A DNA stretch of 34,900 bases from Euryarchaeota archaeon UBA36 (GTDB taxonomy: Archaea > Thermoplasmatota > Poseidoniia > Poseidoniales > Thalassarchaeaceae). How positions within the stretch are numbered: position 1 is the stretch's first letter; each line of letters starts with the position of its first letter. The DNA lies in NCBI GenBank assembly GCA_002496485.1, contig DAJW01000119.1, positions 1-34,900 on the forward strand, in the 5' to 3' direction. The notes under the pieces are model-generated. The model ran no database searches and was not told where the DNA came from. It saw only the letters and a program-made list of their open reading frames with translations. Positions 798 to 34,900 of the stretch are shown here, one piece after another. A program made the translations under genes and the position numbers.

Positions 798-1517
798 ATG
801 CTTACCGACGAAGAAAGATTAACAGTAGTGAATGTAGTTGCCTCTACTCGCGTTGCAGAAGAACTTGACTTACCTGATATTGCAATTCAACTTAATTGTG
901 AATATGAACCAGAACAATTTCCGGGTGTTGTTTACAGAGTAGTAGATCCAAAACTTGCTATACTAATGTTCCGTTCTGGCAGGGCTGTATGTACAGGCGG
1001 AAAAAATGAAGATAACATCGAAGTAGGTATCGAGAGAATGATTGGAGATCTTAGAGCAGCTGGAATTGAAACTTGGGATCAGAAAGATGTAGAAATAGAG
1101 GTCCAGAATATGGTAGCCACATACTCATTATTCTATCCAGAAGATTATGCTGGAACAGCTAAAATGGATGACATTAATACTAAGGTAATAGAAGAAAATG
1201 GTTCAATCAGGGCCGCAACTGATGAAGAAGTAGAAGCCAATGACGATAGAATTAGGGGAGTTCTACAAGGAGAGCCATTAGCTGCATTACCTAGGAAATT
1301 AAATCTTAACAATTTGACATTCCACTTACCATTTGACAAAGTTGAATATGAACCAGAACAATTTCCAGGATTAATTTACAGATTAGACTATCCTAGAGTA
1401 GTTTGTCTGATATTTGGGAGTGGAAAGATGGTAATTACTGGAGCCAGGCACAAAGACGAGATTCTAGAAGCTGTGGAACAAATTAAAGATGAATTAGCCG
1501 ATTTACTGTATGAGTAA
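798..1517 (+). CDS. tbp: TATA-box-binding protein (TBP) with an unusually long second repeat
   Basis: Two TBP pseudo-repeats are present. Each carries EYEPEQFPG(V/L)(V/I)YR followed by (F/I)(R/G)SG(R/K)-V-TG. VVNVVAS and VQNMVAT form the first strand of each repeat. Length is 239 aa versus about 180-190 aa for typical archaeal TBPs. Confidence 0.95.
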   Translation: MLTDEERLTVVNVVASTRVAEELDLPDIAIQLNCEYEPEQFPGVVYRVVDPKLAILMFRSGRAVCTGGKNEDNIEVGIERMIGDLRAAGIETWDQKDVEIEVQNMVATYSLFYPEDYAGTAKMDDINTKVIEENGSIRAATDEEVEANDDRIRGVLQGEPLAALPRKLNLNNLTFHLPFDKVEYEPEQFPGLIYRLDYPRVVCLIFGSGKMVITGARHKDEILEAVEQIKDELADLLYE

Positions 1518-4500
1518 TAAGACATATATTCTTCAATTAGTATCCCCTCTTGTGGCTATGGCTTCTCTTCGCACATGCACTCTACTGGTGGTAATTTTTC
1601 TCATACAACCAATGTCATATATTCTCGTTGATATAAGTGTGAGTAAAGAATTAAAATATGAGAAAAGAGATAAATTTTCTAGCTCTATTCATTCAAATAG
1701 TATCACAGACACTCCGAGCTGGTTAATAGGAGATGTTTGGGAATATGACGGATATCTAGATGTATCGAGTTTTGTAGCAAGTTCGGGTGCTAGCACTAGT
1801 GTAGATGTAGTTTATGGTGTATTGGATCGAACTGTTACTGATATGTATTTATTAGAAATTGATAATTCCTCAACTCTTGTATATGAGGTAATTTCACAAG
1901 GGACATATCAGACTAATGGAGCAATAGATGTTGAAGGTCAAACAGGATGCCTTATTGCAAATATAGAGATTTTTGAAATCGTTCTAGCTTCAGACCTTTC
2001 AACGTATAGTCAGGAAGCAGAAATTGAAGTTTTTGTCGATCCAGCTCTTTTTGGTATATGCTTTCCAGCACTTAGAATTGATCTAGCAGAATTAACAGTA
2101 AAAAATACATTCAACCCACCAATGGAGTGGTATGATTTCCCATTATCTGTTGGAGAGTCTTGGAATACAAATTATTCTCAATCAATTGAATTTAGCGGAA
2201 CTACAAACGATTTGATAACTATACCAATACCTGAAAATACAACCGAAGATAATTCGTCTAGTTGGGAAGTAGTTAGCAGAGGTTACTCCGGAGTCTCCTA
2301 TACTGGCTGTCTTCAATCTTATAATATCACAAGTTATGATAGAGATGGAAATATGGCAGGTTATAGATGGTATTGTCCTGCAATTAGAGGCGACATTAAG
2401 ACTTCGTTGGTACAAAGTTTTGGATTCACTCTAGTCAACGAGCTAGTCTCATATAGTCCTTCGACTAGGCAAACCATAATTTCCATCGAATTAGAGACTC
2501 CTTTATCCCCATTAGACATCGAAACATCGGCATGGATTAATGTTACAAATAATGGTCAACCAGTCTCAGGAAAGATATTACAATTCAGATACGAAAAAGA
2601 AGAATTTTTCCAAAATATAACCACCAATCAAGATGGTTCTGCATATGTAGAGTTTAATTCTGGAGAATCAAGAGATAACTCAGATGGATATAACGAGTAT
2701 GGGAGCCATGGAATTTTGGCTTGGATACAATCAGAAAATATAATTGGAGTTGAAACTATAGTTATAGATCCAGAGGTTTTTGCTGTCGATTTGGTGACTA
2801 GCTCATCAGGCGTTACAGTATCTAGAAATAGGGGAAATAATACTCTAACATTAAATCCCTTGATTGGATTTAATGCTGTATCCGGAGATTCGCTAATATT
2901 TTCAATACCCGTAATTAACAGAGGAGTTCAAACATCACCACCATCAATAATTGAGATTCAGGCCCCTGATGGAACCATAATCAATGGCCAAGTTCCAGAA
3001 CTAAATAGCCTCGAAGAGGCCAGAGTTGAACTTAATTGGACAATACCTGCATCTCAAGTATTTGGAAATATATCATTGATATTTGAAGTCGATCCATCAG
3101 AGGAGATATCCGAAGATGGCAATAGGTCGAATAATTTCGGATTCTTCAATCTTTACATAGGATCTTTGCCAATGGCCATAATGTCTCTTCCACCAACTAT
3201 CTTGACTATGAATGAACTATTCATTGATGGCACCAACTCTAGTGATCCAGATGGGGGTTCTATAATATGCGATTTTACAATCGTAGCAGACTATGGTTCA
3301 TCAGTTTTTGATGAATTTACATCTTTAGAATCTGATTGTACTTTAGAGTGGATTCCACAAGACGATGGAATTATCCTGATTTCCATGACCGTAATAGATC
3401 AAGAAAATGATCAATCCACAATTTCTGATACATTAATGGCGATTAATAGACCTCCAATCCTTACCATAGGTTCAGATAATGAATCGGTTGAAGTACTGTC
3501 TCCTGTAACATTCCGAGTTTTGAATGCAAGTGATTTAGACTCCAATAATCCTTCAAGTCCAGTTGATATATTGTGGAAATCAAATTGTGCAGAAGGGCAA
3601 GTTGGAATTACTTGCACTGTCGTTCCTACAGATGAAGGAGAATTCAAAATTGAAGCTGTAGCTACAGATGATGATGGAGAAACAACAACATCAAACTACT
3701 CAGTAAATGTTACAAATATTGCCCCATTCAATCCATTAGCCGAAGTTTGGCTAGGATCAATGAAGCTAATTCCAGACAATAGGGGGTTGTACTCAATTCA
3801 AGAAGGAGATAATTTTACTTTGTACGGGCAAGCCTCAGACTCATTAAATGACATTAATAGTTTAGAACATCATTGGCAACCTAATGCTGAAAGTTTCCCC
3901 AATCTTAATTTTACAACTGTGGGAGAAATAAGTACAGTTTCTAATTTCTCATATAACTATTCAGGAATTAAATTTGCAATACTTACTGTAACGGATGATG
4001 ATGGGGAGGAAACCGAACCTTTGACCTTACTAATACAAGTTGTTAACTTTGAGCCTCAAATTCTACCCATCCCGCAGATACCACAAATTTCTGAAGATGA
4101 AGAAATAGAAATAGTGGCAGAAGTGGTTGATTCCTACAATGATATGGAATCACTGATTTATTGTTTCGATTTAAATCCAGAAATAGATTCAGATGAAGAT
4201 GGGGCAGCAAAAAATGACTGTGATATAAATTCGAATGTGTTAGTACATTCATGGCCAGATGCTTCTACTTCTCCAGACTTTATTATATTCCATGTTAGTG
4301 ATAATGATGGCTCTACTGATTTCACAGAAATTGAAATAGATGTAGTGAACACTCCACCTGTAGCATTGGCCTCAGTTAATGCCCTAAATCCGACAGAAGG
4401 AGATAAAATAATTCTTTCAGCTAATGGATCCATAGACTCTGTGAATGACATGGAATCTCTTACATTTCATTGGGATTTAGATATATCATTAGACTCTGAT

Positions 4501-4989
4501 GGAGATGGTAACCCATCAAATGATATTGATATGATGGGACGCTGGATTGAGGCCTCATACGATTCTGAAGGGCTGAAACAAGTGAAACTAACAGTAATTG
4601 ATGAATCCGAATCGCATTCTGTTACAATGGATATTAATGTAGCAACCGCTCCATCGATGTTAATTCAACATTCTACATCAATATTTGGAATTATTATTGT
4701 GGCAATAATTTCCTTATCGGGCTATATTTACTACACGAGAAGAATGATGACTGAGGACGGAAAAGATATGGGTAATGATGAATTAAATGTTATTGACTTC
4801 GATGATACGTTTAGTAAAGATACCAATCCAGATTCCTTAATTAATAATCTCCCAGCCGCCCCAGATTTATTACAAGAACATGACATTATTGAGAATAAAA
4901 AGGAGCCCGATATTGCAACTCCGGACGATAATGAAAGGTTACAAAACGCAGGTTTGGATATTGAAGACATCGAAGCACTCTTTGAGTAG
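1510..4989 (+). CDS. large cell-surface protein: CARDB-like plus multiple PKD/Ig-like repeats, C-terminal TM anchor, acidic tail
   Basis: N-terminal hydrophobic segment CTLLVVIFLIQPMSYILV. CARDB-like stretch NRGVQTSPPSIIEIQAPDG...EVDPSEEISEDGNRSNNF. Repeated modules end in VATDDDGETTTSNYSVNVTN, LTVTDDDGEETEPLTLLIQVVN, FHVSDNDGSTDFTEIEIDVVN and LTVIDESESHSVTMDINV. TM helix IFGIIIVAIISLSGYIYY is followed by an Asp/Glu-rich tail. There are many N-x-S/T sequons. The start is uncertain: ATG 1510 overlaps the tbp stop (ATGAGTAA), and ATG 1558 is an alternative. Confidence 0.8.
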   Translation: MSNKTYILQLVSPLVAMASLRTCTLLVVIFLIQPMSYILVDISVSKELKYEKRDKFSSSIHSNSITDTPSWLIGDVWEYDGYLDVSSFVASSGASTSVDVVYGVLDRTVTDMYLLEIDNSSTLVYEVISQGTYQTNGAIDVEGQTGCLIANIEIFEIVLASDLSTYSQEAEIEVFVDPALFGICFPALRIDLAELTVKNTFNPPMEWYDFPLSVGESWNTNYSQSIEFSGTTNDLITIPIPENTTEDNSSSWEVVSRGYSGVSYTGCLQSYNITSYDRDGNMAGYRWYCPAIRGDIKTSLVQSFGFTLVNELVSYSPSTRQTIISIELETPLSPLDIETSAWINVTNNGQPVSGKILQFRYEKEEFFQNITTNQDGSAYVEFNSGESRDNSDGYNEYGSHGILAWIQSENIIGVETIVIDPEVFAVDLVTSSSGVTVSRNRGNNTLTLNPLIGFNAVSGDSLIFSIPVINRGVQTSPPSIIEIQAPDGTIINGQVPELNSLEEARVELNWTIPASQVFGNISLIFEVDPSEEISEDGNRSNNFGFFNLYIGSLPMAIMSLPPTILTMNELFIDGTNSSDPDGGSIICDFTIVADYGSSVFDEFTSLESDCTLEWIPQDDGIILISMTVIDQENDQSTISDTLMAINRPPILTIGSDNESVEVLSPVTFRVLNASDLDSNNPSSPVDILWKSNCAEGQVGITCTVVPTDEGEFKIEAVATDDDGETTTSNYSVNVTNIAPFNPLAEVWLGSMKLIPDNRGLYSIQEGDNFTLYGQASDSLNDINSLEHHWQPNAESFPNLNFTTVGEISTVSNFSYNYSGIKFAILTVTDDDGEETEPLTLLIQVVNFEPQILPIPQIPQISEDEEIEIVAEVVDSYNDMESLIYCFDLNPEIDSDEDGAAKNDCDINSNVLVHSWPDASTSPDFIIFHVSDNDGSTDFTEIEIDVVNTPPVALASVNALNPTEGDKIILSANGSIDSVNDMESLTFHWDLDISLDSDGDGNPSNDIDMMGRWIEASYDSEGLKQVKLTVIDESESHSVTMDINVATAPSMLIQHSTSIFGIIIVAIISLSGYIYYTRRMMTEDGKDMGNDELNVIDFDDTFSKDTNPDSLINNLPAAPDLLQEHDIIENKKEPDIATPDDNERLQNAGLDIEDIEALFE

Positions 4990-6760: not shown

Positions 6761-7414
6761 CTATTTCATCCTCTCATCCTTAATTCTTTTTTTACTCGCT
6801 GCCCACGAACAAATAGGACATTTTTCTAAATCATGCCTCAGTGCAGGACAATATTCCCTCCCGAAAAAAATAATTTGTAAATGCCTCTTATTCCAAGTTT
6901 CCTTATCAAAAACCTTTTTTAAATCTCTTTCAGTTTTTTCAACATTTTTGCCATCAGAAAGTCCCCATCTTGAAGCTAACCGATGAATATGGGTATCAAT
7001 AGGAAAAGCTGGAATTCCAAAGGCTTGAGACATCACCACTCCAGCAGTCTTATGCCCGACCCCAGCCAAAGATTCTAAAAAATCCCAGTCAGGAAAAATA
7101 TCTCCACCAGCGTCAATTATTTGATTAGCCATTTTTTTTAGATTCTTAGATTTAGTTGGAGCAAGACCTATTTCCTTTATGATTTCAAGAATTTCACTCT
7201 CTTTCAATCTTGACATTTCTTGCGGGGTACTAGCAATTTTGAATAATTTAGGAGTAACTTCATTGACCTTTTTATCTGTAGTCTGAGCAGATAACATTAC
7301 AGCAACTAATAATGTATAGGGATCAGAATGAGATAGGGGTATTGGTGTTTCAGGATATAACTCATCTAGTTTAAGGCCGATTTTTTGAGCCTTCTCAAGG
7401 CGCCTCAAGCTCAA
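6761..7414 (-). CDS. nth: endonuclease III (HhH-GPD DNA glycosylase/AP lyase)
   Basis: LVAVMLSAQTTDKKVN, helix-hairpin-helix LAGVGHKTAGVVM, FPIDTHIHRL, and a C-terminal Cys cluster YCPALRHDLEKCPIC. The whole protein contains only three Cys. Confidence 0.9.
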   Translation of the reverse strand: MSLRRLEKAQKIGLKLDELYPETPIPLSHSDPYTLLVAVMLSAQTTDKKVNEVTPKLFKIASTPQEMSRLKESEILEIIKEIGLAPTKSKNLKKMANQIIDAGGDIFPDWDFLESLAGVGHKTAGVVMSQAFGIPAFPIDTHIHRLASRWGLSDGKNVEKTERDLKKVFDKETWNKRHLQIIFFGREYCPALRHDLEKCPICSWAASKKRIKDERMK

Positions 7415-7617
7415 GCCTCCAAAATTACTTCATTATTTCCCCTGATTCCAAGAATAAATGCCCATCCAACAGTTACAAAAAAAGGAACATAACAAGCCAA
7501 GAATGACTGACTAGTCCACTCTTCCGGCATTCCAATAATTGTCCATCCAATAACTGCAAACAATAAGCCCGGAAATGCTGCTAGAAATGAAAATAAAATA
7601 GCTCTAGTTAGTCCCAA
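7411..7617 (-). CDS. small membrane protein (68 aa, 2 predicted TM helices)
   Basis: Two hydrophobic stretches: AILFSFLAAFPGLLFAVIGWTIIG and FLACYVPFFVTVGWAFILGI. The stop overlaps the nth start by 4 nt. Confidence 0.5.
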   Translation of the reverse strand: MGLTRAILFSFLAAFPGLLFAVIGWTIIGMPEEWTSQSFLACYVPFFVTVGWAFILGIRGNNEVILEA

Positions 7618-7621
7618 TTAA

Positions 7622-8173
7622 TCACCACGGAAATTTATATGTCCAGAGTATCCAATCATTTAGTATACACTGAATCCCTAACATAATAGAACCAGTCAAC
7701 ATTATTCCTGCATAATCTACGCCATCTTTGTATGCCGCATATGCCAGTAAACCCATCATAACATTTCCTATCGAGACCAAAGTCAAGATCCCAATAACTA
7801 GTATTGGAGTCCATGAATAATCTGAATTAATATGGAATAGAGTACTTTCAAGCCATAATGCCGAAGGTATCATCACTAAAGCAAATGAAGCCAATAATCT
7901 AGTGTTTCCTAAACCATCAGATTCCACCCAAGGCCACCTCAGTTCCCCCAAAGTTTTTTCATCCAGCTTAAAGAAAATTACATACCAATATGCCATGAAT
8001 CCCGCCGCAGCTATGAACATGAATGGAACTATAAAGCTCCACCAAGTTTCTGGAATTCCACCCCATAATTCACTCGGATCTTCTGAATGTGAAACGCCGT
8101 ATACATAAGATAAAAGTACAAGAGGTCCAAATATCAATGTGAATATTAGAACAGCTTGGCGTGTGACATCCAT
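7622..8173 (-). CDS. integral membrane protein (183 aa, about 5 TM helices), unknown family
   Basis: Alternating hydrophobic segments rich in Trp and Tyr. First gene of the minus-strand operon 8173->5471. Confidence 0.6.
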   Translation of the reverse strand: MDVTRQAVLIFTLIFGPLVLLSYVYGVSHSEDPSELWGGIPETWWSFIVPFMFIAAAGFMAYWYVIFFKLDEKTLGELRWPWVESDGLGNTRLLASFALVMIPSALWLESTLFHINSDYSWTPILVIGILTLVSIGNVMMGLLAYAAYKDGVDYAGIMLTGSIMLGIQCILNDWILWTYKFPW

Positions 8174-8245
8174 AACACCCCCTGTAGTTTCACAGTCATA
8201 ATATTCTGTATTTTAAATATCAATATTATTTCATAATAAGCGTGA

Positions 8246-8254
8246 TTTTATAAA
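8246..8254 (+). promoter_or_regulatory. TATA-box candidate for the SpoU-family gene (leaderless, GTG start)
   Basis: TTTTATAAA is centred 26 nt upstream of the GTG at 8276. Confidence 0.4.
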
Positions 8255-8275
8255 TGAAATAACAATTCTAAACTC

Positions 8276-10304: not shown

Positions 10305-12044
10305 GTGAACATCCCAGATGAACTCCAATTTATGTTAGATGGAAATATTGGCCCAACTAAACAAAAGGCAGCTCGATTAGTCGTAGATTTAGCAGTAACT
10401 GCTAGAGTTAACGAGTTTATTAGGGTAGACAATGCTCATGTTTCCGGAGTTAGTGTCATTACTGGCGGGCATGGTCTAAGACGTTTTTTGAAAGATATAT
10501 CCAATGATCCGGATGGACAGGTCACTATACCCACAACTCTAAATTCTGCAGGTTGTGATAGTGAAAAGATTGAGGAGATGAATATTGATTATCCCGACTT
10601 TTTAGAACAACAATTTGAGATTATAGAATCTTATTCTAAATTAGGAATCGATGCGATTTTATCATGTACTCCATATGACAAAGATACTGAGACACTAAGT
10701 GGTATTGGCTCATGGGCCGAATCAAACGCAGTTTGTTTTTCTAATTCTTATACCTCTTTGACTACTAATAGGGAATCAGGGCTTTCGGCACTCGCTACGG
10801 CAATAACTGGATGGGCTCCAAAATGGGGATTACATATACAAAAAAATCTACTTCCAAACATCTTAGTAGATGTCAAGTGTGAAATGAATGATCCTACAGA
10901 TTGGAGTATATTAGGGGACTGGATTGGAAAAAATATCAACCCTAGCTGGAATCTACCATGGGGCCCTATGCCACAAATAGTTGGACTTTCTGGAGCTAAC
11001 TTTGAAAAGAAAAAGGCATTAACTGCATCCGCTGCAAATTATGGATGTCCAATTTTATGGATTGACGGTATTACTAACATTCCGCCGTCCAATAAATATG
11101 AAGGCCAACTAATTTTTGATAAATCCGATTTAGAATCAAGATATTCTGAACTTTCTCCAATTGGACAAGTAGATTTAGTTGTGATTGGATGCCCTCAAGC
11201 TAGTGTAGGTGAGGCTAGAGCCACTGCAGCAGCAGTAAGAACGCAAATGGAATTAGGGAATCGAATTCCAGATAATAGACTATGGCTATTTATGAGCGGA
11301 CAAAATTATCTTTCAATCGAAGCCGATGGCACCTTAGAACTTCTCGAAGAAGCGGGGGCGCTAGTTCTCAAAGATACATGTCCCGAAGTTACGCCTTATA
11401 ATCGAGAAAAATATAATCATTTACTAACAAACTCTCTTAAGGCTGAACATTATTTAACCAGTGGATTAAATAATATGCCAACTAGTGTTTCTAAAATTCA
11501 AGATTGCGTCGCTCATGCGTTCAATCCATCTTTATCCAAAGGCCCCCGACCAGAATTACATTCAAAAAAACCCAAACAAATTATTTCTACAAAAATAGCA
11601 AAATATGGAAATTTTCAATCCCAAGGAAAAGGTATTCCTAGCCAGAATCATTGGACTTTATCCGGGAAGGCTTTGGTCACCGATATTCCGATTACCTACT
11701 TGGGATATGTAAACAGGGATTCAGGAGTCATTGAGGAGCCTGGTCACCCACTGGATGGGAAATCAATTTCCGACACCATTCTAATTTATCCCAAAGGATC
11801 AGGATCGACAGTAGCTCCATTTGTGCTTATGGGATTGATATATACAAATAAGGGCCCTAAGGCCATAATAAACAGGGATGTCTGCCCCTTAACTCTTCCA
11901 GCAGTTTCTTTGCTTGATGTTCCTTATGCACACAACTTTGAAACAGACCCAACAATGGAGATTAATACCGGAGATGATATTACCATGTCACTAAAAGATG
12001 GAGAAGTGACTATTTCAGTAATTTCAAGAGTAACCGAGGTTTGA
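10305..12044 (+). CDS. aconitase X (AcnX) family dehydratase, fused large (DUF521-like) and small (DUF126-like) domains
   Basis: N-terminal part: IRVDNAHVSGVS, SCTPYD, GSWAESNAVCFSNSYTSLTTNRESG, AITGWAPKWGLH, VIGCPQAS, KDTCPEV. C-terminal part: GKALVTDIPITYLGYVNRDSGVIEEPGHPLDGKSISDTILIYPKGSGSTVAPFVL...GPKAIINRD. GTG start. The stop overlaps the next gene's start. Confidence 0.75.
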   Translation: MNIPDELQFMLDGNIGPTKQKAARLVVDLAVTARVNEFIRVDNAHVSGVSVITGGHGLRRFLKDISNDPDGQVTIPTTLNSAGCDSEKIEEMNIDYPDFLEQQFEIIESYSKLGIDAILSCTPYDKDTETLSGIGSWAESNAVCFSNSYTSLTTNRESGLSALATAITGWAPKWGLHIQKNLLPNILVDVKCEMNDPTDWSILGDWIGKNINPSWNLPWGPMPQIVGLSGANFEKKKALTASAANYGCPILWIDGITNIPPSNKYEGQLIFDKSDLESRYSELSPIGQVDLVVIGCPQASVGEARATAAAVRTQMELGNRIPDNRLWLFMSGQNYLSIEADGTLELLEEAGALVLKDTCPEVTPYNREKYNHLLTNSLKAEHYLTSGLNNMPTSVSKIQDCVAHAFNPSLSKGPRPELHSKKPKQIISTKIAKYGNFQSQGKGIPSQNHWTLSGKALVTDIPITYLGYVNRDSGVIEEPGHPLDGKSISDTILIYPKGSGSTVAPFVLMGLIYTNKGPKAIINRDVCPLTLPAVSLLDVPYAHNFETDPTMEINTGDDITMSLKDGEVTISVISRVTEV

Positions 12045-31915: not shown

Positions 31916-33229
31916 TCATTCTTTTCTTAATTCGCCCAGGGCCTCTATTACTGCAGCCTGAGTGATTCTTCCACCCCTCTCCCTGAGCTTACTGGCAACA
32001 ATATCTACTTCTTTTCCTTCCGCTCCCGCAGTAACAGCCATATTTCTGACATGTAATTTCATATGTCCAGCTTGAATTCCTACGGTAGCCAAAGCCCTCA
32101 AGGCTCCTAAATTCTGAGCTAATCCAGATGCAGCCATAACTTTGGCTAATTCATCCGCAGTCTCTATGCCCAGTAGCTTCACATTAGCCTGAGCAGCAGG
32201 ATGTACTCTTACTGCCCCCCCGACTAAACCTACAGCCATTGGCAACTCAATAGATCCAACAAGATTACCGTCACCATCTTTCCACCATTTGGTTAATGAT
32301 CCATATTCTCTACCATATGAAGCGAAACTATGTGCGCCCGACTCTATTGCCCTCCAGTCTTGTCCACATGCTATGGCCACCGCTGAAATTGCATTCATGA
32401 TTCCCTTGTTGTGTGTCGTTGCTCTGAATGGATCTGCCTTGGCAAAATGATATGCTTGTATGACTCCCTCAATCACTTCTCTTCCACTTTCCGAATCATT
32501 TCCGGAATCTGACATTTCTCTAGGAGTAAATATTGCACTAACCCTGGCCAATCTGTGAATAGCTAAATTACTAATAATCCTGAGAATAACTGTGCCACCA
32601 GTAATTTCTTCTATTTTAGGGGCTATGGATTCTGCCATAGTATTTACTGCGTTTGCCCCCATTGCATCTCTACAATCAACAAGGATATGCATAATTACCA
32701 TCTGACCTGAATCCGTATCAATTATCTTCACTTCAATATCTTTACAACCACCTCCAAATTTTACCAAAATCGGATCCACTTCATTACACATCTTAATCAA
32801 ATTATTTTTTTCCCTAATAATTGAATCCCGTGCACTTTCTGGATTTTCACAATTAACAATTTGTATTTGCCCAATCATAATTGGATCATCATTATCCGAT
32901 TTAAATCCTCCATTATCTAGGCAGCGCTTGGCCATATTACTAGCAGCAGCAACTACACTCGGCTCTTCTAAGACGAAAGGAATGACAAAATGCTCATCAT
33001 CTATAACAAAATTAGTCGCTACCCCAATTGGAAGGGAGTATGTACCAATCACATTCTCTATCATTCTATCTGCGGCATCTTCGGACAATTCTCCCGAATC
33101 CGCCAATGCTAGGATATGCTCCTCAGATAAGCCGCCTATTTCGGCAATTTTCTTCCTTCTCTCAGCTACTGACAATTTATAGAATCCTTCAATCCGACTA
33201 TTTTCGACAGACATGTTTCTCAAACTCAT
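31916..33229 (-). CDS. hmgA: HMG-CoA reductase, class II
   Basis: ENVIGTYSLPIGVATNF, EEPSVVAAASNMAKR, DAMGANAVNTMAE, THNKGIMNAISAVAIACGQDWRA and GIQAGHMKLHVRN. These are class II (Pseudomonas/Thermoplasma-type) landmarks. Confidence 0.92.
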   Translation of the reverse strand: MSLRNMSVENSRIEGFYKLSVAERRKKIAEIGGLSEEHILALADSGELSEDAADRMIENVIGTYSLPIGVATNFVIDDEHFVIPFVLEEPSVVAAASNMAKRCLDNGGFKSDNDDPIMIGQIQIVNCENPESARDSIIREKNNLIKMCNEVDPILVKFGGGCKDIEVKIIDTDSGQMVIMHILVDCRDAMGANAVNTMAESIAPKIEEITGGTVILRIISNLAIHRLARVSAIFTPREMSDSGNDSESGREVIEGVIQAYHFAKADPFRATTHNKGIMNAISAVAIACGQDWRAIESGAHSFASYGREYGSLTKWWKDGDGNLVGSIELPMAVGLVGGAVRVHPAAQANVKLLGIETADELAKVMAASGLAQNLGALRALATVGIQAGHMKLHVRNMAVTAGAEGKEVDIVASKLRERGGRITQAAVIEALGELRKE

Positions 33230-33281
33230 CAGGTGACATCAGGCTTCTAACCTTTTTCAAAGCTGTAAAACTTTAGAAATT

Positions 33282-33453
33282 AAGCGTTAATTAATACATT
33301 AACGCTTTATTAACGCTTTTTATAAACGTTAACATAGCGTTAATCATCTAAAACAATAAACGTAATACTACATGATATTTTAGTAAATTTAACGAATGGG
33401 TTTTCTGAAAAACCTAGAAATTAACGTTTCTAGACACGTAAATAAGCGTGAAT
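33282..33453. repeat. array of about 9 copies of AAGCGTTAAT / ATTAACGCTT in both orientations within the hmgA-ATPase divergent intergenic region
   Basis: Copies read directly: 33282-33291 AAGCGTTAAT. 33298-33307 ATTAACGCTT. 33309-33318 ATTAACGCTT. 33324-33333 AAACGTTAAC. 33335-33344 TAGCGTTAAT. 33358-33366 AAACGTAAT. 33388-33397 TTTAACGAAT. 33420-33429 ATTAACGTTT. 33444-33453 AAGCGTGAAT. Confidence 0.8.
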
Positions 33454-33459
33454 ATTAAG
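33451..33459 (+). promoter_or_regulatory. TATA-like box for the downstream ATPase gene (leaderless)
   Basis: AATATTAAG is centred about 27 nt upstream of the ATG at 33483, and it overlaps the last motif copy. Confidence 0.3.
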
Positions 33460-33482
33460 AGTTCGACCAGTCACTCAAGAAT

Positions 33483-34900
33483 ATGGTTGTGGCGGAGATG
33501 CCTTTGTTAGATACACCAGCACTCAGAGGTAATCCGTTTGATATGAGGCCAATCGAAAGATCAAGGAGCCATGAGATAGTAGCCAGAGATGAAATACTGA
33601 TTGAATATAGGGAACACATACATTCCTATTCACCACGAATGAAATTAATAGTAGGAGATCATGGCTCAGGAAAATCTTCTCTAATAAACGTACTTTCATC
33701 CTTTACGGATCGATTCTATGTGGGGCAATATTGGCATGAAGAAGAAGTTTTAAGAAAAGTATTAACAGAAATACTTGTTACTTTTGGAGACTATGAGGTC
33801 CCTAGAACTATGAATTTAACGATCGACAAACTAGTCGAAAAATTAGAATCTGAAAATGGCCCATTGCCACTCATTGCTCTAGATTACCCGTCCACTGTCC
33901 CTCTATCCGAATTTCTTTCGCTAATATGCCCAATTTTTCAACGTCTTAGGGCATTCATTGTTATTTCTCTTAATCACTCACAACTAAACTCATTAGATGA
34001 ATCCGTAATCAAAATATTCGACCCACCTTTTGAACTTAAACCACTAAAAGAAAATGAAATCCAGAAACTTTGCGATAAGAGGATTATGAAGATGGCCAAT
34101 GAAAGATGGAAGTTAAGTACAATTCTACTAGAATCAATCCAGAAAACCTCTGGCGGTAATGTGGGCTCAATTATTAGGATACTTAGGGATATTATAGATG
34201 AAAAAAGAGGACTAGGTTGCGAGGGCACCTATCAAAGAATTATTTCATGGAACAAGCCAAACATAATATCCCAAGACGGCAAAAAAAATACTGATCAATC
34301 ACCATACAAAGAAGCAATATCACCAGAGAGAAAGAATGAAGATATATATCTAGAATCAGATGAGGAAAAAGATGAAGAAAAATTAACAAAAGGATATGAT
34401 GATAGTCCGACAGAATTTGAACAATATCTTTCTCAAACTATCAAAATGGAAAGCCATCAAAATACAGGAAATTATGAAGAATTCCAAAATCAAATTGAAG
34501 AAGATGAGGAAGAAAGAATCTTACGTTTAAATTTAGAAAATATAGATAATCAAAAGATAACAGAATGGACAGAAAATCATAAAAAACTTCAATCTGATAA
34601 TAAAAAAATAATACTTACAAATACTCCAAATAATGGTTTTTCAGGTTTGATGAATAGATCAAGAAATGCTTCAAAAGATATGCCGTCAGGAGATCCAGAA
34701 AATATTCCAGTAATGGACTCAGATTTTCCGGCTAACATAGATAGAAAAAAAGAAAAAATATATCCAATAAAATCCGGTTTCAAAAACCAAACTTCTAATC
34801 AGTATCGACTCGATAATCTCCCATCTAAAATCGATATAGACGATAAGAGTGTATTCTCATCGGAAGGAGAACAATGGACAGTAGATTCAGCATTCGAGGA
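33483..34900 (+). CDS. AAA+ / Orc1-Cdc6-like P-loop ATPase with a long low-complexity C-terminal region, 3'-truncated by the window edge (not in the supplied ORF track)
   Basis: I translated this frame codon by codon from ATG 33483 to the window end and found 472 codons with no stop. N-terminus: NPFDMRPIERSRSHEIVARDEILIEY...KLIVGDHGSGKSSLINVL (Walker A). LPLIALDY is Walker-B-like. AFIVISLNH is sensor-1-like. FDPPFELKPLKENEIQKLCDKRI and GGNVGSIIRILRDI correspond to the lid and sensor-2 region of Orc1/Cdc6. About 220 aa of K/E/N/D-rich sequence follow. Confidence 0.7.
   Translation, partial: MVVAEMPLLDTPALRGNPFDMRPIERSRSHEIVARDEILIEYREHIHSYSPRMKLIVGDHGSGKSSLINVLSSFTDRFYVGQYWHEEEVLRKVLTEILVTFGDYEVPRTMNLTIDKLVEKLESENGPLPLIALDYPSTVPLSEFLSLICPIFQRLRAFIVISLNHSQLNSLDESVIKIFDPPFELKPLKENEIQKLCDKRIMKMANERWKLSTILLESIQKTSGGNVGSIIRILRDIIDEKRGLGCEGTYQRIISWNKPNIISQDGKKNTDQSPYKEAISPERKNEDIYLESDEEKDEEKLTKGYDDSPTEFEQYLSQTIKMESHQNTGNYEEFQNQIEEDEEERILRLNLENIDNQKITEWTENHKKLQSDNKKIILTNTPNNGFSGLMNRSRNASKDMPSGDPENIPVMDSDFPANIDRKKEKIYPIKSGFKNQTSNQYRLDNLPSKIDIDDKSVFSSEGEQWTVDSAFE

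Follow-up and report, generated by a model that had tools for sequence, protein, structure and literature searches.

A 34,900-nucleotide (nt) stretch of the genome of the marine archaeon Euryarchaeota archaeon UBA36 (order Poseidoniales; hereafter the window) carries, between the divergent hmgA gene and a gene for an AAA+/winged-helix protein, a dense array of eight short boxes. It is proposed with moderate confidence that this array is a cooperative operator and assembly site for the protein encoded downstream, controlling that protein's leaderless promoter; most likely it is the protein's own control and assembly site and not the main origin of the chromosome. The boxes stand in a fixed order and at fixed spacings, they are linked exclusively to this gene, and the gene product consists of an AAA+ module, an acidic linker and a winged helix. 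The original prediction had proposed the array as a candidate replication origin in the classic archaeal oriC layout and named a cooperative operator array as the alternative. It is this alternative that we favour, on three grounds: 69 of 77 loci have the array locked in a register of 198-201 nt to the protein start, a TATA-like element directly adjoins the last boxes, and the winged helix of the protein is conserved.

The gap between hmgA and the downstream ATG at 33483 is 253 bp long (33230-33482), and positions 33282-33453 within it hold five strong and four weaker copies of ATTAACGCTT, so that the predicted nine copies of one word in 172 bp were confirmed in both coordinates and sequence. 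Eight of these are family-type boxes lying in both orientations, b2 and b3 being opposite to the rest; all are given here as read on the plus strand. The distal cluster is opened, behind an A-rich tract, by b1 (AAGCGTTAAT, 33282-33291), which has the GCGTTAA orientation and forms a perfect 10-bp inverted repeat with b2 (ATTAACGCTT, 33298-33307) across a 6-nt spacer, while b3 (ATTAACGCTT, 33309-33318) is a direct repeat of b2 placed 11 bp, or one helical turn, further on; both relations were part of the original prediction and are present in the sequence. Box b4 (AAACGTTAAC, 33324-33333; consensus AAGCGTTAR) returns to the GCGTTAA orientation and is repeated directly at 11 bp by b5 (TAGCGTTAAT, 33335-33344). 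After the b5-b6 spacer (33345-33419), which contains an extra TTAACG at 33389-33394, follow the proximal boxes, namely the weaker copy b6 (ATTAACGTTT, 33420-33429), the degenerate copy b7 (CACGTAAAT, 33435-33443) and the weaker copy b8 (AAGCGTGAAT, 33444-33453). The last of these occupies the position of a transcription factor B recognition element (BRE) and is followed directly by the TATA-like element ATTAAGAG (33454-33461, plus strand; ATTAAG at 33454-33459).

The abundance of boxes had been claimed to exceed chance, and this holds for their clustering and not for their total. Seven of the ten window matches to TTAACGCTT with at most one mismatch, and seven of the twelve exact TTAACG words of the window, fall inside the 172 bp. 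When the window was simulated 300 times with a first-order Markov model and the largest count in any 172 bp was recorded, the maximum was three, against the seven observed. The window-wide total of TTAACGCTT is unremarkable (10 against 6.7 expected), and the clustering is the unusual part.

Relatives of the locus were collected by an alignment-based scan with one genome per species, which gave 134 genomes with a match; the best 80 were analysed, and all of these are metagenome-assembled genomes (MAGs) of Marine Group II (MGII)/Poseidoniales, mostly Thalassarchaeaceae, except for contig L060, which is binned in an Acidimicrobiaceae MAG. With about 80 species genomes and 98 metagenome contigs in the comparison, each of the 80 species genomes retrieved had the array upstream of the gene, always between divergent hmgA and the AAA+/winged-helix gene and always with the same box order; the motif was thus found in every orthologous spacer examined, a check that had been suggested together with the original prediction. 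Two distant, GC-rich relatives (L084 and L085) retain both the synteny and the TTAACGC boxes. The distance of 198-201 nt is that from b1 to the first residue of the protein, and the distance from b1 to hmgA is variable (47-216 nt). An alignment of 68 nt from 76 distinct genomes is essentially gapless, with a single 1-nt indel, and has 29 invariant columns; CGTTAAT of b1 and TTAACG of b2 are each invariant in 76 of 76 genomes, and so is GTTA of b4.

The consensus of the boxes is RTTAACGCWT, which agrees with the earlier remark that they lack the G-string of origin recognition boxes (ORBs). In the family the distal cluster reads AAAGCGTTAAT - 6 nt - RTTAACGC - 3 nt - RTTAACGC - ~7 nt - GCGTTAR - 3-4 nt - GCGTTAA, and the proximal one (C/G)CGTTAAT, then about 11 nt, then AAGCGTGAG - 3 nt - GCGTGAA, passing directly into ATTAAGAA or ATTATGTA. 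The b7-b8 pair, with the family consensus AAGCGTGAG-N3-GCGTGAA, is again phased at 11 bp, and its GCGTGAA is nearly invariant. The spacer between b5 and b6 (about 77 bp) keeps its length throughout the family and varies in sequence, apart from the small conserved islands tACTG and cGGAA. In the window and in its 84%-identical relative L004, b6 (ATTAACGTTT) is flipped and shifted with respect to the family consensus AACCCGTTAAT; together with the extra TTAACG at 33389, also common to L004, this represents a local remodelling in the species group of the window. Two further variants of the array were seen. Several lineages, among them the L009-L035 clade, show one more forward box, GTTAAC or GTTAAA, which follows b3 in an exact 11-nt phase and overlaps b4, and L066, L075, L077, L078 and L083 carry a rearranged array with two forward and three or four reverse boxes and no b1.

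Within the DNA scanned, the motif is specific to this position. Inside the modules TTAACGC reaches 15.8 per kb, as against 0.013 per kb in the 1.2 Mb of flanking DNA that was scanned (10 kb either side of the loci), where no paired TTAACGC was found and the 16 isolated copies are at the Markov expectation. At every locus nearly all TTAACG cores within 10-20 kb fall in the 450 bp upstream of the gene. A scattered motif marking a regulon, which had been foreseen as an outcome favouring a transcription factor site at many promoters, was therefore rejected, as the 16 unpaired copies in the flanks are neither enriched nor avoided. Among metagenomes of the JGI, 98 of 120 exact matches to CGTTAA-N8-TTAACG-N5-TTAACG adjoin this gene or hmgA; the remaining 22 lie in tandem repeats, in bacterial DNA or in a eukaryote-like repeat family, and the protein is absent from them. 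The same three-box pattern has seven matches in viral contigs, belonging to four unrelated phage families and lacking either protein domain. A mobile-element or viral origin of the array was rejected on these seven viral and 22 non-orthologous metagenome matches. In the viral contigs L086-L092 and the metagenome contigs L102, L137, L138, L142 and L197 there are three to six TTAACG boxes in the same geometry of an inverted pair plus an 11-bp tandem; among these DNAs are four phage families, with GC contents of 38-65%, and a eukaryote-like repeat family of very low coding density, and none of them contains a homologue of the MGII protein. Their boxes reflect either chance or convergent operator designs.

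The gene downstream of the array begins at 33483 on the plus strand, and the window contains its 5ˊ part (33483-34900), that is 472 of about 594 codons, and ends before the winged helix. The complete gene is a single open reading frame (ORF) in 63 of the 65 loci that contain it whole, on which the counts of protein motifs below are also based; the product has 569-691 residues, with a median of 601. At the two other loci the AAA+ module and the linker-winged helix-turn-helix (wHTH) part stand in separate ORFs (L001, 6849-6949; L070, 11121-11338); both splits look like frameshifts and are probably made by assembly. Split genes of this kind account for truncated "ATPase-only" database entries and for the fact that the first homology search gave only 10 relatives. 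At E < 1e-10 the family has about 87 representatives in a search of 1.84 billion proteins; its public names are "hypothetical protein", "HTH domain-containing" and, for one IMG member, "ArsR family regulator".

By sequence comparison the product of the window gene shows weak matches to AAA_16 only, and the family as a whole matches only AAA_16 and AAA_22 in Pfam. An AlphaFold2 model of the N-terminal 260 residues (mean confidence score pLDDT 78) comprises an AAA+ base plus lid, and its top Foldseek matches are the RFC small subunit, ORC/Cdc6, MuB, TnsC and NB-ARC; for RFC, ORC/Cdc6, MuB and TnsC, all of which oligomerise on DNA, E values range from 1e-8 to 1e-6 with a template modelling (TM) score of about 0.6. 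Two helices lie between β2 and β3 of the model, an arrangement that would be compatible with an initiator-specific motif. Profile alignment by hhalign to Poseidoniales Cdc6 gave 215 collinear columns (E 3.4e-5, probability 72%), the matched parts including GRD..L, the P-loop, Walker B and a sensor-2-like TGGNPR. None of 25 members matches the Cdc6 lid or Cdc6_C (PF22703 and PF09079), and the C-terminal domain aligns with the Cdc6 winged helix at E 0.21. The protein was originally called an Orc1/Cdc6-like ATPase. Fold and profile bear out the likeness; the Cdc6 lid and winged-helix signatures are missing, and the Walker A lysine usually is too. Fold and profile alignment put it in the ORC/Cdc6-like AAA+-wHTH class; a canonical Orc1/Cdc6 it is not. 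At the place of the Walker A lysine, 61 of 65 orthologues have arginine (GSGRTS); the copy in the window keeps the lysine (GSGKSS). The Walker B sequence is LIALD[YF]P, in which the Asp is not followed by a second acidic residue. Both departures from the canonical motifs make classical ATPase activity doubtful, and the AAA+ module may be a pseudo-ATPase.

The AAA+ module is joined to the C-terminal domain by an acidic, disordered linker of about 265 residues, 27.5% of which are Asp or Glu. The alignment of full-length proteins shows short conserved motifs in this linker, mostly of a Trp-acidic type (EPDDxW, GFxGLxxRS, EGxxWTVDS and PxWExD), and these look like docking peptides for partners. 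The best-conserved part of the protein is its C-terminal 80 residues (REISPSDxELQARLEVGRPRLSQIYNxLxKSGILSVRKQGRxRLFKLS), in which VGRPRLSQIYN or a close variant occurs in 65 of 65 sequences; the profile of this domain matches the winged helices of ArsR, HlyU and BigR with E values from 2.9e-4 to 3e-3. The conservation of the winged helix, a DNA-binding domain, parallels the invariance of the boxes.

The TATA-like element, with the family consensus ATTAAGAA or ATTATGTA, is centred 26.5 nt upstream of the ATG, a distance that implies a leaderless mRNA. We infer its role as a promoter from archaeal promoter geometry; words resembling TAAGAA or TTATAG are also enriched at -45 to -18 of other genes, which is weak evidence since the ORF starts are imprecise. 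The rigid register between array and TATA-like element, the 11-bp phasing, the AAA+ scaffold of an oligomerising type and the equally conserved winged helix together suggest a cooperative assembly on the eight boxes. We propose that the winged helix would read a 7-10-bp box, (A/G)TTAACGC(T/A)T, and that the 11-bp phasing of b2-b3, b4-b5 and b7-b8 would place protomers on one face of the DNA, where they could contact one another through their AAA+ modules. The five-box distal cluster would nucleate the complex, and the length-conserved 77-bp spacer would allow it to reach the weaker proximal boxes. The overlap of these boxes with the BRE position by the TATA-like element of the gene's own leaderless promoter would result in autoregulation, most simply repression. 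Where a divergent gene pair is conserved, one of its members is usually a transcription factor that regulates itself. In this scheme the adjacent protein as the binder, the promoter assignment and the sign of the regulation are inferred.

Several points weigh against the operator and assembly site. Eight sites over 165 bp are lavish for plain autoregulation, and since boxes and recognition helix alike hardly vary, there is no co-variation of protein and site to read. The proximal GCGTGAA, consistently unlike the distal GCGTTAA, could be no more than the BRE, and in the species of the window b6 is itself rearranged. The steady closeness of the locus to cdc6 and, in many lineages, to smc-scpA-scpB hints at a role that goes past transcription to the level of the chromosome. 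Finally, the binding of the boxes by the protein is a prediction in organisms that are uncultured.

The neighbourhood in which these hints arise is itself conserved. The family gene order is hmgA(-) - array - gene(+) - DUF357(+) - PIN(-) - eIF2-gamma(-) - S6e(-) - cdc6(-), preceded in many lineages by smc-scpA-scpB, and hmgA is the divergent neighbour in 81 of 84 sequences. The start of cdc6 lies about 4.3 kb past the start of the AAA+-wHTH gene (57 loci reach cdc6, most of them at 4.2-4.6 kb and four at up to 7.6 kb). Its product is a genuine Cdc6, matching PDB 1fnn at 1.7e-33 and Sulfolobus Orc1-1 (2qby_A) at 1.4e-30 and carrying Pfam Cdc6_lid and Cdc6_C. Of 84 loci, 44 have smc-scpA-scpB directly on the far side of hmgA, as does the distant relative L084; smc is absent from the window, and the SMC linkage is absent in the clade of the window. 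In L084 an extra ORF of 357 residues without Pfam matches (7193-8266) lies between the AAA+-wHTH gene and DUF357.

We consider it unlikely that the Poseidoniales start replication at the array, as their only origin or as one among several, with lineage-specific boxes bound by the adjacent Orc/Cdc6-like protein or by the genuine Cdc6. Boxes in both orientations directly upstream of an AAA+-wHTH gene of ORC/Cdc6-like fold, with a genuine Orc1/Cdc6 gene about 4.3 kb off, are what such an origin would show; moreover, the spacers flanking cdc6 are only 50-80 nt long in L001, the spacers of 400-1050 nt upstream of cdc6 in some other loci are without repeats, and no clusters of the canonical ORB core exist within 10 kb either side, so that, if an origin lies near cdc6, the array is the only repeat-bearing spacer. 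A canonical origin beside cdc6 was tried as a candidate and rejected: the apparent 760-bp gap in L001 is the eIF2-gamma ORF, the longer spacers hold no ORB-like repeats, and the ORB-core patterns amount to 55 single occurrences and zero clusters in the 1.2 Mb of flanks. The canonical cdc6-associated origin elsewhere, which had been named as a counter-test, was accordingly not seen within 10 kb either side. Nucleotide skew argues against an origin at the array. When the GC skew at four-fold sites was split into a coding-strand term and a strand term, in 2.5-kb bins from -10 to +10 kb across the loci and over 33 kb leftward in the window, the strand term was negative in all eight bins; on the left this was so for 35 of 39 loci, on the right for 31 of 32, and the sign stayed the same over the 33 kb of the window (+ genes -0.24, - genes +0.11). 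The skew inverts neither at the array nor at cdc6, its relation to replication being uncalibrated in this lineage; a minor or dormant origin would be expected to give no skew signal. Genes converge on the array instead of diverging from it, the boxes have neither ORB dyad nor G-string, and no distinct unwinding peak is apparent (63% AT in the b5-b6 spacer, not above the other intergenic DNA; 62.5% and 60.5% in the two box clusters, 49% in the locus background). The rigid promoter register is foreign to known origins, and the arginine at Walker A in 61 of 65 orthologues and the missing Walker B glutamate do not fit an initiator. The oriC layout of the original prediction is thus weakened by the constant sign of the skew and by the lack of both ORBs and a conserved unwinding element. 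As a separate observation, four-fold sites on the strand of the AAA+-wHTH gene are rich in C and slightly rich in A on both sides of the array in nearly all species (L001-L083), and this asymmetry holds although 19 of the 28 window genes lie on the same strand. Should leading strands be G-rich here, the majority of the genes in this region would be head-on to replication. A literature search found no paper on Poseidoniales origins, their GC skew, this motif or this protein family.

The number of sites, the length-conserved spacer and the cdc6 and smc-scpAB neighbourhood leave room for a larger chromosomal role, and a chromosome-level system specific to MGII is a tentative possibility, whether as a non-canonical pair of replicator and initiator (non-ORB boxes and a degenerate Orc-like protein by a true cdc6) or as a first archaeal parS-like centre that recruits SMC-ScpAB. 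Taken by itself, it is rather improbable that the array is a centromere-like organising site which the wHTH protein coats, recruiting SMC-ScpAB or a segregation machine through its linker motifs and regulating itself only as a by-product, in the manner of parS/ParB or parC/ParR. The position of smc-scpA-scpB immediately beyond hmgA in the loci given above and in L084, the sites in excess of what autoregulation requires, the linker motifs GFxGLxxRS, EGxxWTVDS and PxWExD with their look of partner-binding peptides, and the resemblance of 11-bp-phased boxes flanking their own promoter to the logic of plasmid R1 parC all point this way. All of this is circumstantial, however: the SMC linkage is missing in the clade of the window, a protein family of this kind has no known archaeal precedent, and no gene for ParA, ParM or SegA stands among the conserved neighbours (hmgA, DUF357, PIN, eIF2-gamma, S6e and cdc6), a negative that comes without a dedicated search and without a search of the flanks. 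It is improbable as well that the main role of the array is bidirectional control, with the wHTH protein acting on hmgA and hence on isoprenoid membrane-lipid synthesis. The triad of hmgA, array and gene is kept as a divergent pair in nearly all sequences and in the distant relatives, conserved divergent pairs often consist of a regulator and its target, and b1 lies about 30 nt from the promoter-like element of hmgA in the clade of the window. Archaeal regulators normally work within a few turns of BRE/TATA, however; the distance from array to hmgA changes between lineages over the range given above, lineages with long spacers have no boxes near hmgA, and hmgA has a conserved promoter-like element of its own. 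It is hardly credible that the inverted boxes encode an RNA hairpin, a terminator or a cruciform. Boxes b2-b3 and b4-b5 can pair (92% of cells paired), and one weak, sub-threshold Rfam match of a miRNA-like kind was obtained, but the covariation is 0.081 against 0.099 in shuffled alignments, with 500 of 500 shuffles at least as high, the variable positions (A/G in b4, box ends) are uncompensated, b1 and b6-b8 have no partner, and both arms are conserved at the level of sequence. This candidate was rejected as effectively refuted, with neither covariation nor an Rfam family behind it, and the absence of compensatory change in the would-be hairpin argues that the boxes are protein sites and not RNA or DNA structure.

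Known systems share parts of this arrangement. The archaeal replicator-initiator pairs, in which an oriC with ORB or mini-ORB elements adjoins orc1/cdc6 (Sulfolobus oriC1, Pyrococcus oriC), are one such case. Like them, the array consists of several short boxes, facing both ways, in the spacer before a gene for an AAA+ protein with a winged helix; a cdc6 gene is near by (here 4.3 kb off), and the predicted binding sites overlap the promoter of the gene. In contrast to these origins, it has no TCCA..GGAA dyad or G-string, no unwinding element and no skew inversion, and its register to the promoter is rigid; the MGII protein in turn differs from the orc1/cdc6 products of those loci in the lack of the Cdc6 lid and Cdc6_C signatures, in the mostly missing Walker A lysine and in its disordered insert of 265 residues. 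The nearest outgroup in sequence is formed by archaeal ATPase_2/AAA_16 proteins (PF01637-type), which have the same order of an AAA+ module followed by a C-terminal wHTH of the MarR, TrmB or ArsR type; they are shorter (340-430 residues), have no long acidic linker and presumably an intact P-loop lysine, and to our knowledge their functions and sites are largely uncharacterised. The DnaA boxes of oriC and of the dnaA promoter and the iterons of R1 parC, bound by ParR, are arrays of 9-11-bp sites, partly phased by helical turns, that are bound cooperatively and serve autoregulation. They are alike as a functional analogy only, in that a higher-order complex also autoregulates the adjacent gene; they are bacterial or plasmid-borne, and their proteins are unrelated to the MGII protein or distant from it at the AAA+ level. 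Orc1-2 of the Sulfolobales, a genuine Orc1/Cdc6 paralogue, is a transcription factor in the DNA-damage response that recognises a hexanucleotide at many promoters and so controls a regulon (PMC6061795). It resembles the present case as an AAA+-wHTH protein of initiator lineage in promoter control through a short motif, and differs in that Orc1-2 acts at many promoters, whereas MGII has one dense eight-box array at a single locus and no others in the 1.2 Mb of flanks.

Marine Group II is among the most abundant archaea of the surface ocean; we know of no cultured member and of no experimental knowledge of gene regulation, origins or chromosome organisation in the group. The locus offers a sharply defined, testable pair consisting of a 200-bp DNA module and an uncharacterised family of proteins of about 600 residues, and its three-box core is almost diagnostic of the lineage, as the 98 of 120 metagenome matches illustrate. 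The domain logic of the protein mirrors that of Orc1/Cdc6, from which the arginine in its P-loop and its long acidic linker set it apart. As an autoregulator the protein would be a clean case of promoter control by an AAA+ scaffold of the initiator type put to a new use; if the array is an origin or a centromere-like site, it would be of a type new to the Archaea and would provide a landmark for estimates of growth rate from metagenomic coverage.

On the other side of the array, hmgA (31916-33229, minus strand) encodes a class II HMG-CoA reductase (TIGR00532, 5e-133). Its separate promoter-like element, GGCTTCTAAC at 33242-33251 (GTTAGAAGCC on the minus strand, that of hmgA), is nearly invariant in 80 genomes; it is 10 nt long, lies 14-24 nt upstream of the annotated hmgA ATG and is probably the TATA/BRE of hmgA, in which case the true start of hmgA moves to the second ATG, at 33214. 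Besides hmgA the window has two more genes of the mevalonate pathway, a GHMP kinase fragment (14-733) and an aconitase-X gene, AcnX (10305-12044); genes of the AcnX type serve for phosphomevalonate dehydratase in the archaeal mevalonate pathway. Other genes of the window include those for TBP (798-1517) and for a surface protein of 1159 residues with CARDB/PKD domains (1510-4989).

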